In this document: positions 7,416 through 46,641 of the stretch, in pieces
Position numbering within the stretch: position 1 is the first letter of the stretch
Layout of the letters: each line of letters opens with the position of its first letter
Program-made: the position numbers and the translations under genes
The notes under the pieces: model-generated
The model's input: the letters and a program-made list of their open reading frames with translations, nothing else
Database searches by the model: none
What the model was told of the DNA's origin: nothing
From: Heptranchias perlo
Taxonomy: Eukaryota
Length of the DNA stretch: 64,000 nt
Direction: 5' to 3'
NCBI RefSeq assembly: GCF_035084215.1
Contig: NC_090335.1
Location: 47,864,001-47,928,000 of the forward strand

Positions 7416-7600
7416 ATGTGGAGATGCCGGTGATGGACTGGGGTTGACAATTGTAAACAATTTTACAACACCAAGTTATAGTCCAACAATTTTTATTTGA
7501 AATCTACAAGCTTTCGGAGGCTTCCTCCTTCGTCAGGTAAATGTTCAGGAGCTCCTGAACATTTACCTGACGAAGGAGGAAGCCTCCGAAAGCTTGTAGA
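7416..7600. mobile_element. Mini Penelope-like insertion: 3' end on the - strand plus an inverted copy forming a 98-bp perfect palindrome (7503-7600)
   Basis: Same terminus as the large PLEs. 12-bp duplication TAGACTGACATA at 7404-7415 and 7597-7608. Palindrome centre CAGGAG|CTCCTG. Inserted in a SINE S1 copy. Confidence 0.92.
7561..7600 (+). ncRNA. Minimal type I hammerhead ribozyme (mirror copy on - strand at 7503-7542)
   Basis: TTTAC-CTGACGA-A-GGAGG(AAG)CCTCC-GAAAG-CTT-GTAGA. Confidence 0.8.
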
Positions 7601-7822
7601 CTGACATATGAAGAATGCCCTATTGGGCAAGGTCTCAGATGATGATTGGTGTTGATGGAATCATACTCCAAAAAGAGTCAGTGCCATCAGGGGAGAAGAG
7701 AAAATTGGGGGAAAGAAGGAGGGAAGCAGGATTCTTATTTTAACTGTTTTGCATGTGTGGATTGTTTTTGAGAAATACCCTATCTTCTAACTATATACAT
7801 ATATCTAAATTCATTTTTGTAG

Positions 7823-8200
7823 GCATGTGTGCTGCTCAAAGACATGTCCAGGTACAGGAAGGCCCCCTGATCAGAGCAGAAGGATACCACATAACCATTT
7901 GGTGTAACGTGTCCGGATACTCCAGTTCCATGCAGCAGAACTTTGAGTGGTCAATCTATCTGCCTTCTGCACCTGAAAGACAAATCCAGATAGTCAGCAC
8001 TAATGATCCAGACTACCCCTATGCTGTGTATGGAAGCAGAGTACGGAATAAGGAGGTCTACGTTGAGAGAATTGATGGAGACTCGGCGCTCTTGCACATT
8101 ACCAACCTACAACTGGGAGATACAGGGGAATATGAATGTCACACTCCCAACACAGAATCAACCTACTGGGGATCCTACAATGCCAAGGGGAATCTGACAG
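7823..8200 (+). CDS. IGSF3: EWI-family Ig gene (IGSF3-like), exon for Ig-V domain 1
   Basis: tttttgtag|GC...ACAG|gtacgt, 378 bp, phase 1/1. QRHVQVQEGPLIRAEGYHITIWCNVSGY...GEYECHTPNT..GSYNAK closely matches IGSF3/CD101 domain 1. Paralogue assignment is uncertain. Confidence 0.93.
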
Positions 8201-8834
8201 GTACGTGATGTTTGGTTTTACAATGATTGCCTTTGTTAATGTGGTCTGCAGCATGTAATAACAGGGTAACATCAAATGTGCAATATTCCCTTTGAAGAAG
8301 CAACGGGTTTTTAATAACATAGCCAGTCTATAATCATTTCACAGAACTTTCAAGTATATACAGATGTAAGTTTTTATGTTGAGGGGCATTTAAAATTGTA
8401 GGCTGACAGACTTAAAAACTTAATTTTGACTGAATCATTCCATTTGTTCCACAGATGTAGTATCTCATTAATAGACCTTTAACTGACCATTAAAGTAGGT
8501 TTTTGTTTATTTACAGTGTCTGTACTCAAGATTCAGTAAAATAGAAATTGTGGACCGTTCTCTCTTTAAAATTGATCCCAGGTGTGATACATTATTCAAA
8601 ACACTTGGTTGCAGTAGTATTTTGCATGCCAGGACTCTGAATAATGTGTTTCAGCTGGGACCGCTTTTACAGCAGCAGGTGTCTCTGATGAGAACAACAT
8701 ATAAAGATGCAAGAAAGATGCCATTACTTGTAGTGAAGGAAGTGCAACGTTAGAAAAATGCATTTCAGTATCACACAGCTGCACACTTGAGAAATCTCCA
8801 TTTGTGAGTAAACCATTAAAAATTACCATCGAGT

Positions 8835-43103: not shown

Positions 43104-44689
43104 GTGATCTGTCCTTCCGTGCAGCTTCTGGAGGAGCAGGATATCTCATCGAGCAACTTCTGGATTTCTGCATTTGACTCTGCAAGTGCGCTCGTCAGAC
43201 GTTGCTCTTCCATTTTCCCTGAAATAACGGTGAGCGCTGTTCGGCTCTCCGTTATTTTTGGAGCAAATTCTGGGCATTGATAATTTCCATGGTTACCATA
43301 GGAATGTCAGGTGGCCCATTTAACAGTAAATACCCTTCTTTTGCTATTGGATTTGATCCACAATGGTTTTTTGGGCTTGGTTAGGCCAGAAAAATATTAA
43401 CAAATTGTAAATTTATTGTTGGTATAACTATTGTGCTATGACTGTTATATTAGCCATTTTCCACCTTCATATTTCCCATGCCTCAGATGGAGGTCAGTGT
43501 AAATAGGAGACCTGTGGTTCATACTGCAGACAACTGCTGGGTGTCCAGGTTTCTAAAACAACCAGAAGTGCAGAGCCCAATTATAAATTTATGAACTTGG
43601 ATGTAGAAATATTAATTAAGGTTGACCCAGGGTTCTCCCATGGCGCAATTTTTTTCAAATTCCAGCTTGCACCAAATGTTAAAATAAGATTTATGAGTTT
43701 AAAAAGAAGCAATATCAGCATTTTTCACTTTATTGACAGTGGACCGTCTGAAGCATATCCAGATTTAATCACTAACAGAGAACTGATCTTGCCAAAGACA
43801 GCAATTACAATTCTGCACTAAAATCATGATTTTAGAAAACATGTATTAATTTTCTATAATTCTGACTCACTTGTTCCCCCAACACTGTCTCTTACTGATG
43901 GGCAAGGACACTAACACTTCCACATTTGGTCGGAATATTGTATATACGGTCATGACATTCAGCCCTCCTTTCTCTGGTTGCGGTCTTGGAGATTGTGCCA
44001 ATAATTCCTGGCTTCTCAGTGTGACATATCTTTTCCTCTTTCTTGATCTTCAGCAAAAGAAAGCAAGACAATTTTATGGCGAGGGAACTATCCCAGCTAA
44101 AGGTTAATGGTGAATGCTGTATTAAACCTACTATCCCTATAGGTTTAATATAGGTCTTTCTCTCATGCTATGAATGCTGGAATAGCTCTTGTTCCCAAGT
44201 AGATTTTTGCAAGAGAAAACGCACCTGTAAATTCCAAAGCCAGATGGACGCTGAAGAAAAAAGAGAGAAAGAAAAATAGAGGGAAAAAGAGAAAAACAGA
44301 GATCCAGAGGAAAAGAACACACTAATGCTACTTTATACTGCACTGAAGGACACAGTGTTGTCTCTATTTTCACAGTAAAGCAAGTGGTTTACAATGCCTG
44401 TTCACTCACTATTAAGTTGGAGAAGGGAGTACTCCATTCATGTCAATCAAATGCATCCATAGAGTGCTTAATAACTTCCCACTGGTAATGTTATTTTAAT
44501 GAATTGAAAATAGCCAACAAGATAATCAACACTTTTGATCATTAAAATGTGAATAGTGATACAGTGAGCCATCCAAATTTGTTTTAACTTCTTAAAAACC
44601 TGTCTTTTATCAGGGCTTCACATCAGTTGCTTTTATACTACAGCCAATGTACATCCCTTCTAGCGTGATATCAGCCCATTTAGGGGTAG

Positions 44690-45625
44690 CGGCATGGATA
44701 GAAAGTTGGTTGACAAGACAGGAAAAAAAGAGCTAGGAAATATGGGTGTTGCTCAAATTGGAGAAGGAATGGAAGTGGTATACCCCAGAGGTCAGTGATG
44801 GGTCAACGTTTATTCTCAGTCCATACAGATGATTTGGACTGGGGCAGAATGAGCACAATCTCGAAATTTGGTACAAAATTAGGGGAATTAGCAAACAGCA
44901 AGGTGGATTGTAAAAAAAAAGTTCAGGAAGACATAAACGGGTTGTTGGAATGGGTAGACAGGTGACAGATGTAATTTAGTGTGGATCAGTGCTAGATAAT
45001 ACATTTTGGGAGGAAAAAAAAGGAATGTAAGTATACACTCAATGGCAAGACACTGAAGAGTGTGAATGAACTGAGAGACCCAGGGGTTCAAATATATAAT
45101 TCCCTGAAAGTGCGAGTAGAGATAGATAAAGCCATAAAAAAGGCCAACAGTATTTTGGGTTTTAAAAATAGGGACATAGAATACAGGAGTAAAGCAGTAA
45201 TAATAAATTTATACAAAGCATTGGTTAACCCGTAGTTGGAGTACTGTGTGATGTTTTGGGGACCCCAGTACAGACAGGACATTAAATCCATAGGCACTGA
45301 CAGTGTAGATTCACCAGGATGATGCCAGAGATGGGAAACTATAGTTATGAGGAGAGATTTGAGATACTGAGATAAATTTCACTGGTGCTGAGTATACTAA
45401 GAGGAGATTTGAAAGAGGTTTTTAAAATTATGAGTAGTTTTGATAGAGTGACTAGGGATTGACTATTTCCTCTGGTTAGGGTGTCATGACAAAGGATCTT
45501 CAATTTAAAATTGTCAATAACAGAGTGAGAGGAAAGGCTAGAAGAACTTTCTTTACACGGAGGGTAGTTGAATGTGGAATGCTTTGTCACAGGGAGTGAT
45601 TGAGACTGAGACCATTGCACCTTTG
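44690..45625 (+). mobile_element. Degenerate CR1 LINE fragment
   Basis: Decayed GIPQRSV, LYKALVNP*LEYCV and RGDLKEVFKI motifs. Confidence 0.75.
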
Positions 45626-46538
45626 CTGGCTTGACTGCCAAATGCCACAGAATACTAACCGCAGCTCCAATGTTAACGAATTTTGGAAAGAGGGCCTGAA
45701 GCAGGTGTTACTTGCATTTGCCTTACTTCTGTTTTAGGTGTGGACCCTGGATGCCTAAACAGGGGCCTTTACCAATATGGAGGGCAGAGCACTATGGGTA
45801 CAAAATGTGCCCGCGCACACCGCCCGCCATATTGGCCACTTAAAGTGTCCGTTTTACACCTGTAAAACATGCGCGACGCCAACGAATTACTAGGCCGATG
45901 GGCCGAATGGCATAATTCTGTGCCGTAACCTTCTGTGGTTCAGATTGGTGATTGGCTGAAAGGGTTTCTTCGTTTAGTCACCATGTGATACGACTCACTC
46001 ACTCTTCAATAACTGAAGAAAATCAGTGCGTCAAAGCAGCTACTATTAGCAGAAACAGAATAGTGAACTCAATTTAAAGAATAGTTCCGAGAGATGTGTG
46101 ATAGATGCAGCCTGCCACTTTTAACTATGTCTATGTTTTTGACATGAGGTGATGCATCAGCAGACTTGTGACTGACTCATGACTGACAGTGTTGACCGCT
46201 CTACCAGTATAAAAGGCAAGCAACCTGCTTCCAGGTTTCTGGCAGTGGGGCTCTAAAAGTGCCTACTATGAGGTGAGCAAAGAGTTTTTCTCATCCTGTT
46301 TCCATGGAGAAACCCCAGCCTTTGTTCTGCACCTTGACACAGTGGTATGACTGGGATTTGGGAACTTACTGCATATATGAGGAATTACTGGCATGAATGC
46401 ACATCCTACTCCACTCCATGGCACAGCATGTTTTAGCACCATGTTCCCTAGGTTTTATTTTTAAAAGTTTATTGCAAGAATGCACATTAATAAGCATTTC
46501 ATGGCTCTCTGCATTTTTCCTCAGTGTTTTAAGATTAA

Positions 46539-46641
46539 TTGTAAACAATTTTACAACACCAAGTTATAGTCCAACGATTTTATTTTTAATCCCACAAGCT
46601 TTCGGGGGCTTTCCCCTTCCTCAGGCGGTGTGGAAGTATTA
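46539..46641 (-). mobile_element. Solo tail-less PLE terminal fragment with a hammerhead (46592-46628)
   Basis: 11-bp duplication TTTAAGATTAA at 46528-46538 and 46642-46652. Minus strand CCGC-CTGAGGA-A-GGGG(AAAGC)CCCC-GAAAG-CTT-GTGG. Confidence 0.85.

Follow-up and report, generated by a model that had tools for sequence, protein, structure and literature searches.

Loopless minimal hammerhead ribozymes in the pseudo-LTRs of a young Penelope-like element of Heptranchias perlo, and their bearing on its double insertions

The question raised by this locus, a window of 64,000 nucleotides from Heptranchias perlo (contig NC_090335.1, positions 47,864,001 to 47,928,000), is what a hammerhead ribozyme without the loop of stem III may do for the Penelope-like element (PLE) that carries it, and whether its pairing with a second copy is linked to the back-to-back double insertions of that element. 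A motif search found nine loopless type I hammerheads in the window, all within PLE pseudo-LTRs (pLTRs; see Table 1), as a first-pass annotation of this DNA had proposed; all nine share the same layout (stem I-CUGANGA-A-stem II-GAA-AGCU-U-stem I'), the core CUGANGA ... GAAA ... UH and the type I topology, with a stem II of 4-5 bp and a stem I of 4-6 bp, and the individual stem sequences named in that annotation are correct. The nine copies stem from 5 insertions, four of them inverted pairs and the fifth a single, and comprise 7 distinct sequences; hence they are not nine independent samples. A canonical type I hammerhead, with a looped helix III, a 6-bp helix I and a loop-loop contact, was rejected because there is no loop 3 and because no hammerhead model was matched in a scan against Rfam, which returned 3 weak, unrelated matches.

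Table 1. Hammerhead copies, insertions and element features in the window.
Feature	Position	Strand	Remarks
Insertion 1, short inverted double	7404..7608	.	12-bp TSD; tail on left arm
Min-HHR copy 1 (C3 at 7536)	7503..7540	-	tailed arm, inverted insertion 1
Min-HHR copy 2 (C3 at 7567)	7563..7600	+	arm stops just past stem I, microhomology with TSD
Insertion 2, long inverted double	15022..19405	.	12-bp TSD; arms identical over 1,313 bp
Tail of ~34 bp, insertion 2	15027..15060	-	one arm only
Min-HHR copy 3 (C3 at 15148)	15115..15152	-	
TATAAA, 40 nt upstream of C3	15183..15188	-	common to lineages; putative promoter
5'-truncated PLE ORF	15404..17783	-	matches residues 111-902 of the intact protein at 99.6% identity; RT, CX4CXXC linker, putative GIY-YIG-type endonuclease (by-eye motif)
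Min-HHR copy 4 (C3 at 19318)	19314..19351	+	
Insertion 3, short palindromic double	27148..27405	.	older lineage; 9-bp duplication at ends
Min-HHR copy 5 (C3 at 27232)	27199..27236	-	tail-less arm
Min-HHR copy 6 (C3 at 27289)	27285..27322	+	tailed arm
Insertion 4, long inverted double	29193..34497	.	2.6 + 2.7 kb
Min-HHR copy 7 (C3 at 29280)	29247..29284	-	tail-less arm
Min-HHR copy 8 (C3 at 34376)	34372..34409	+	tailed arm
Insertion 5, single tail-less stub	46537..46645	-	starts ~20 nt 5' of core
Min-HHR copy 9 (C3 at 46624)	46591..46628	-	
Tenth loopless hammerhead, other family	59062..59098	+	ACGU palindrome (decayed here); absent from first-pass annotation

Genome-wide, the tight pattern is matched 80,052 times, compared with 0 matches for the reversed control, so that the motif is not a product of chance. 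Covariation of stems I and II had been claimed from the window, where 98.4% of the stem cells are paired in the nine copies (1 of 500 shuffles was as high); in 17 recurrent haplotypes 98.7% are paired and three pairs show double changes, the corresponding controls being 0 of 500 shuffles for pairing, 6 of 500 for double changes and 30-49% of cells paired in slid alignments. Recurrent haplotypes, 18 in number, are those found in two or more events, and the haplotype alignment (A1) excluded L066:504-541, a likely truncated haplotype. Both tests agree with the claim, but since related sequences may beat shuffles, and relatedness was left uncorrected by a tree, they are to be taken as support for covariation and not as an R-scape result. 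The G-U variants of stem II, listed in the annotation among the pairing-conserving changes, do exist (27232 and 34376), but each is confined to one arm and is missing from the 18 recurrent haplotypes, so that they probably reflect decay after insertion.

The statement that this hammerhead cannot fold as a monomer holds, an A15.1-U16.1 pair being sterically excluded by the 2-nt loop that it would have to close; stem III can be closed by a second copy through the 4-nt palindrome AGCU and, as far as the sequence allows a judgement, cutting likely needs such a partner. The stretch originally assigned to this pairing, AAGCUU, is self-complementary but too long: A14 and N17 are positions which, following established hammerhead numbering, we take to belong to the core, and the helix III of an active dimer is therefore the 4-nt AGCU. 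This palindrome is present in 9/9 window copies; its central GC is kept in 223 of 225 sampled copies, where the AGCU motif was itself part of the selection, and, as read by eye, in 100 of the 100 listed copies for which nothing but CTGA and a downstream anchor had been required, and the main lineage contains 0 copies with both palindrome bases changed. By nearest-neighbour energies the double-hammerhead fold lies ~1 kcal/mol above two monomers, so that even the dimer needs help; the best predicted dimer exchanges stems I and II, with AGCU unpaired, and since the double-hammerhead fold is not the energy minimum, folding alone cannot show dimer activity. The duplex energies are -2.5 kcal/mol for AGCU and -4.3 kcal/mol for AAGCUU, with a pairing probability of 0.001 in the co-fold.

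Minimal hammerheads (min-HHR) without helix III and loop 3 were defined by Cervera and de la Pena (2014; PMC4209133), together with an extra base after A9, a G10.1-C11.1 pair and a palindromic 15.2-16.2; in vitro, monomers did not cleave while dimers and trimers did so weakly, and pairs were described on opposite strands, 100-700 bp apart. The copies studied here are likewise of type I, with a short helix I, no helix III or loop 3 and a location in pLTRs, and they too comprise thousands of solo copies, opposite-strand pairs and many covarying sequence families; the extra base after A9 is A in 222 of 225 sampled copies, and the 10.1-11.1 pair is G-C in 17/17 haplotypes. They differ in the length of helix II (4-5 bp, compared with 7-8 bp in the Schistosoma families) and in copy number (~80,000, compared with ~9,000 in Xenopus). 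Because helix III loss, dimer dependence and opposite-strand pairs are all defined in PMC4209133, the loopless, dimer-dependent design is already known, and with that design in print the finding adds a family and not a kind; the family itself is absent from the part of the text and supplement of that paper that was searched, and its supplementary figures may contain it. The short-stem-III PLE hammerheads of Lunse, Weinberg and Breaker, which cleave as dimers (reviewed in PMC6765202 and PMC6466107), are similar in their link to PLEs, in the reduced stem III and in a dimer cleavage needing palindrome and tandem layout. What the ~80,000 copies and the intact young units provide is a set of counts bearing on the unsolved mechanism of PLE integration: a single tail in every sampled double, uncut templates, arms ending near the predicted RNA start and a minority of arms of mixed lineage.

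The host element is a young, partly intact PLE, whose 3,081-bp coding unit led us to reject a non-LTR retrozyme (a short, non-coding tandem unit); three tandem copies of the hammerhead lie 3,081 bp apart around intact ORFs, which places the ribozyme in the pLTR. The intact ORF encodes 902 aa from an ATG at +121, the ribozyme being 121 nt upstream in intact tandem units. This single ORF contains a reverse transcriptase (RT; Pfam RVT_1, E 3e-10; DKG motif in the sequence) and a putative C-terminal endonuclease (EN) region of the GIY-YIG type with CCHH, where VVY..C...C..WYIG and two His were read by eye, with no Pfam GIY-YIG match up to E 1. The CX4CXXC linker of the ORF, absent from Penelope/Poseidon, fits the CX2-5CxxC linker between RT and EN of the Neptune clade, shared with Nematis (PMC8557442), and pLTR tandems, an inverted truncated copy, a one-sided tail and a TSD were found as in EN+ PLEs. 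If the TATAAA box acts as a promoter, transcription would begin immediately 5' of stem I.

As to the insertions, the first is a perfect palindrome over 7503-7600 (centre at 7552), and the third has a perfect palindromic centre at 27260; in the second, the left arm is tailed and the right arm is tail-less with an internal deletion, the tail spanning +88 to about +120 from C3 and stopping just before the ATG of the next unit's ORF. Insertion 5 has an 11-bp duplication, read from the sequence. Genome-wide, 88 divergent pairs yielded 73 independent TSD-flanked doubles, 13 without TSD and 2 duplicates having been dropped: 67 join a tailed and a tail-less arm, 1 an extended tail and a tail-less arm, and 5 a tailed and a shorter arm, so that the unlike tailed/tail-less pairing is found in 68/73 and two like ends in 0/73. 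Both end types occur among single insertions (n=49; 28 tail-less, 15 tailed), and in 9,926 doubles both arms end just 5' of the core. An origin from two independent insertions at a single site was rejected for most doubles, since the unit has one flanking TSD and no TSD separates the arms. Partial tandems, an inverted 5'-truncated copy, a short TSD and a tail of 30-40 bp at one end are known from EN+ PLE insertions (PMC8557442, PMC3846280); unlike the present data, the passages of those accounts compared here count neither tail asymmetry nor arms of mixed lineage.

In the Anolis Poseidon element PAc (Frangieh et al. 2024; PMC11167929), the protein, a predicted dimer, cuts and extends both DNA strands, with two reverse-transcription start sites bounding the tail and uncut RNA as template, and insertion is equally good with a dead hammerhead. 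The present element resembles PAc in the hammerhead near the pLTR-ORF junction and, probably, in the two RT start sites bounding the tail and in the uncut template, and differs in that hammerhead and tail are wholly upstream of the ATG. That the templates are uncut is judged from 44,054 copies (>99%) that read through the cleavage site, with the proviso that in long copies uncut linear RNA and cut, re-closed circles look alike.

The explanation that we consider highly probable, judging from sequence, is that the pLTR carries slow hammerheads, likely needing a stem III completed by AGCU, and that doubles arise when the element protein, working on uncut RNA, primes from each of the cut DNA strands and begins copying at two fixed start sites. 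The ribozyme would be slow and would depend on a second copy for a complete stem III, the partner usually being the next pseudo-LTR of a tandem transcript, or else another RNA that the protein holds; transcription would start 10-20 nt before the core, given the TATAAA at -40 and the many arms that stop there. Cutting would trim read-through or tandem transcripts, or make unit-length ends closable into a circle, and would not bring templates to the target; the back-to-back doubles are more likely made by the protein than by a ribozyme pairing two RNAs.

The latter possibility goes back to the first-pass annotation: two RNAs, joined by the palindrome of the ribozyme, would reach the target together, and each cut DNA strand would receive one of them; we consider it improbable, and the proposed link between ribozyme and double insertions is weak, a minority of mixed-lineage arms speaking for it, the strict tail asymmetry and the mostly same-source arms against it. 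Indeed, a symmetric RNA dimer does not predict 68/68 unlike ends, and the arms of doubles usually share source variants: in the 69 doubles compared (4 of the 73, with <60 comparable bases, being omitted), the arms are identical over the compared 60-82 nt in 29, unlike at one or more lineage-diagnostic sites in 16 and at two or more in 8, a count that includes L071, where a single gap may account for both differences. The diagnostic differences between arms nevertheless number 28 against 9.2 expected, as pairing of two RNAs would allow, and arms differing at two or more sites offer one lead, either towards gene conversion or towards two templates. For one pair of stem II haplotypes that lie three changes apart, 10 doubles combine the two (TSD in 8/10, one tail in all) and 310 are same-type, and another lineage pair gives 10 more mixed doubles; these favour two RNAs, but they are few beside the same-type doubles, and two other lineage pairs, including the two youngest, give 0. 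Moreover, the arms of mixed doubles mostly share downstream variants, some of them rare, and differ in a short patch only, the pattern expected from gene conversion or from template switching. The minority of doubles with arms of different lineage counts against the protein-priming explanation in so far as that relies strictly on one RNA. A crossover hot spot at the cut site was considered because mixed doubles differ upstream and agree downstream; it was rejected as unproven, L142 and L065 having downstream differences together with shared variants nearer by, and the mixed doubles having been selected on upstream differences.

Further points in favour of two RNAs come from insertion 4, whose arms are 3.3% apart, yet 1.0% and 1.6% from copies elsewhere, with shared alleles over about 1 kb, and from arms of over 2 kb on both sides, which are easiest to obtain with two templates; however, no TSD was found for insertion 4, the AGCU duplex is weak, and Naiads, described as having no canonical hammerheads, have inverted insertions as well as tails on one side (PMC8557442). 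The literature searched, which covered few subscription papers, offered no account in which inverted PLE insertions are copied from two templates. There is a slim chance that a share of the inverted insertions is copied from two RNAs, coupled within a protein dimer by the loopless hammerhead, with the palindrome (AGCU or ACGU) as a family-specific code; if mixed arms do arise at insertion and depend on the palindrome, PLE hammerheads would gain a role beyond cutting.

It is equally doubtful that the first cDNA folds back and primes its own copying to give the second arm, the tail being a remnant of endonuclease resolution and the ribozyme a passenger. Self-priming has been proposed (PMC3846280), as has resolution of the tail by the endonuclease (PMC8557442), and the perfect palindromic centres and the 29/69 identical arms speak for such a copy; however, in at least four long doubles (15022-19405, L047, L050 and L056) the tail-less arm extends further 5' than its tailed partner, which cannot be obtained by copying a tailed cDNA, tail-less singles are common, and mixed arms exist. 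As a general rule fold-back is refuted by these four, and it could still hold for some short palindromes.

Finally, the motif might not cut in vivo, or might cut as a protein-chaperoned monomer, and be retained at the 5' end of the RNA for its fold or for binding protein, which we think unlikely. A pile-up of 5' ends at the cut site was not found among genome copies: 166 begin there (26 of 30 checked being true truncations) and 219 begin two bases downstream, taken as control (14 of 30), which after correction leaves cut-site truncations at ~1.4x the control, a small excess that may be real. In addition, cleavage by the Anolis hammerhead requires protein, and RNA-seq showed no ends at the site concerned (PMC11167929), and the activity of minimal hammerheads in vitro is low (PMC4209133). 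On the other hand, neither the core bases nor the palindrome change across the 17 recurrent haplotypes, in contrast to loop II and N7, which do. Palindromes of the W-W type (AT or TA) are near background as further families (5,856 matches vs 4,999 for the control), whereas other loopless families carry CG (9,596 vs 607), and this switch from GC to CG retains the self-complementarity that only a dimer needs.

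The nine hammerhead motifs that the first-pass annotation had read in the window were found again, at the same positions, by a scan of both strands, and each keeps the layout claimed for it (stem I, CUGANGA, an extra A, stem II of 4-5 bp, GAA, AGCU, U and stem I'); they represent five insertion events, four inverted doubles and one single stub. A tight motif pattern has 80,052 matches in the 3.25-Gb genome, the reversed control 0. The co-variation described for stems I and II also holds: 98.4% of stem cells are paired in the nine window copies (7 distinct sequences) and 98.7% in 17 haplotypes each occurring in at least two events, where double-sided changes occur in three pairs and variation is seen at N7 and in loop II but nowhere in the core or the palindrome; as for the G-U variants of stem II, two are present in the window and neither is among the recurrent haplotypes. 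The observation is real and well conserved, and concerns a further member of a class already described. PMC4209133 defines the min-HHR, reasoning that helix III and loop 3 are dispensable, and reports its presence within the pLTRs of PLEs from invertebrates, fish, coelacanth, frog and reptiles, with an extra base, a G10.1-C11.1 pair and a palindrome, no cleavage as monomer, low cleavage as dimer or trimer, and pairs on opposite strands. Dimer cleavage is also credited to Lunse et al. in two reviews (PMC6765202, PMC6466107). The earlier suggestion of obligate dimers is thus the published model.

Insertions and neighbouring elements (window coordinates)
Positions	Feature	Remarks
7412-7600	inverted double	short
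15022-19405	inverted double	
17781-19400	tail-less arm of 15022-19405	~1.28 kb of ORF skipped in one step (template jump or later deletion)
15404-17821	ORF	encodes RT
27148-27405	inverted double	short
29193-34497	inverted double	TSD absent
46537-46645	single stub	
59010-59150	short element with inverted ends, another family	tenth loopless hammerhead at 59066, decayed, ACGU palindrome
23667-25754	LINE-type RT, different element	Pfam RVT_1, E 3e-34
19863-21830	2-kb element	
36129-38178	2-kb element	
38805-40872	2-kb element	
41051-43118	2-kb element	

Doubles were sampled from sequence surrounding the first 100 matches on contig C1, from 39 further regions of the window motif's family and from 5 search loci. 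A TSD flanks 75 of 88 divergent pairs (in the exact-match pass, 12-13 bp long in most cases), leaving 73 doubles once duplicates are removed. Counted from core nucleotide C3, arms end either near +84 (tail-less) or near +120 (tailed), and single insertions show both kinds of end; among the 73 doubles, 67 join a tailed to a tail-less arm, 1 an extended tail to a tail-less arm and 5 a tailed to a shorter arm, while alike ends are absent (<1e-20 under independent end choice). These data are best explained if the doubles are made by protein-driven priming of both strands. As described in PMC11167929, the Anolis PLE protein cuts and extends both strands, uses two start sites that bound the tail, and is a predicted dimer; an active HHR is dispensable for insertion there, the HHR mutants tested keeping the palindrome intact. 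The HHR-less Naiads, according to PMC8557442, have an insertion layout in common with the present doubles. Simple fold-back is ruled out as a general origin, because the tail-less arm is the longer one in at least four long doubles.

It had been proposed that dimerisation through AAGCUU delivers two templates to one target site. Arms are identical over the compared stretch in 29 of 69 comparable doubles; in 16 they are distinguished by at least one lineage-diagnostic site, and in 8 by at least two (28 such differences observed vs 9.2 expected), bearing in mind that two RNAs of the same locus look like one RNA. Genome-wide, one haplotype pair gave 10 mixed doubles vs 310 same-type ones, another also 10, and two others none. 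Downstream variants of mixed doubles, some of them rare, are mostly common to both arms, the difference being a short patch; longer divergent stretches are found in insertion 29193-34497 and in L076, a region outside the window. Mixed arms and these longer divergences make a second template possible in a minority of double insertions, and gene conversion or template switching fits the mixed arms as well. Nothing ties mixed arms to AGCU, and it is improbable that ribozyme pairing is the link to double insertions.

A monomer indeed lacks stem III, which is impossible since the A15.1-U16.1 pair would have to close a 2-nt loop. A 4-bp AGCU helix can form between two copies; computed duplex energies are weak (-2.5 kcal/mol for AGCU, -4.3 kcal/mol for AAGCUU), the AGCU duplex has a co-fold probability of 0.001, and adopting the double-hammerhead fold costs ~1 kcal/mol relative to two monomers in an energy model without core contacts. 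The sequences show selection on the palindrome: GC is kept in 100 of 100 copies among the matches listed (82,914 in all), chosen without regard to the palindrome, no main-lineage copy has both palindrome bases changed, a CG palindrome marks other loopless families (9,596 matches vs 607 in the control), and W-W versions have genome matches near background. Most of the 100 listed among the 9,596 CG-type matches belong to the family of element 59010-59150; eight copies of a third loopless family, whose palindrome is CG and whose position 17 is C, lie at L097-L104 (G000:C1:927781-1017683), all on one strand and spaced 8-22 kb apart. Read-through RNA of the two short doubles would fold as one long hairpin, burying the ribozyme; these stubs therefore probably have no ribozyme activity, and might serve as sources of double-stranded RNA.

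Of the main-lineage copies, 44,054 extend across the cleavage site and 166 start there (26 of 30 checked are true truncations), while 219 start at a comparison position two bases downstream (14 of 30); ends at the cleavage site amount to ~0.3%, with no clear peak, as is likewise reported for the Anolis element in PMC11167929. Long copies could derive from cut, re-closed circles, a model outlined in PMC4209133.

At a locus outside the window, three hammerheads, spaced at 3,081 bp, alternate with two intact ORFs of 902 aa, with 121 nt from C3 to the ATG and the tail at ~+88 to +120. The ORF protein, as read from sequence, carries a DKG motif, a CX4CXXC linker (of a type treated in PMC8557442 as a mark of Neptune or Nematis elements) and a GIY-YIG-type C-terminus, the Pfam match being for RT alone. 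TATAAA lies 40 nt upstream of C3 across lineages, and both arms end shortly upstream of the core in 9,926 doubles genome-wide, which places the likely RNA start just 5' of the ribozyme. The four related 2-kb elements of the window, with short terminal inverted repeats, Myb/SANT domain remnants (Pfam E 6e-4, below cut-off) and no relation to the PLE protein, we take to be Harbinger-like.
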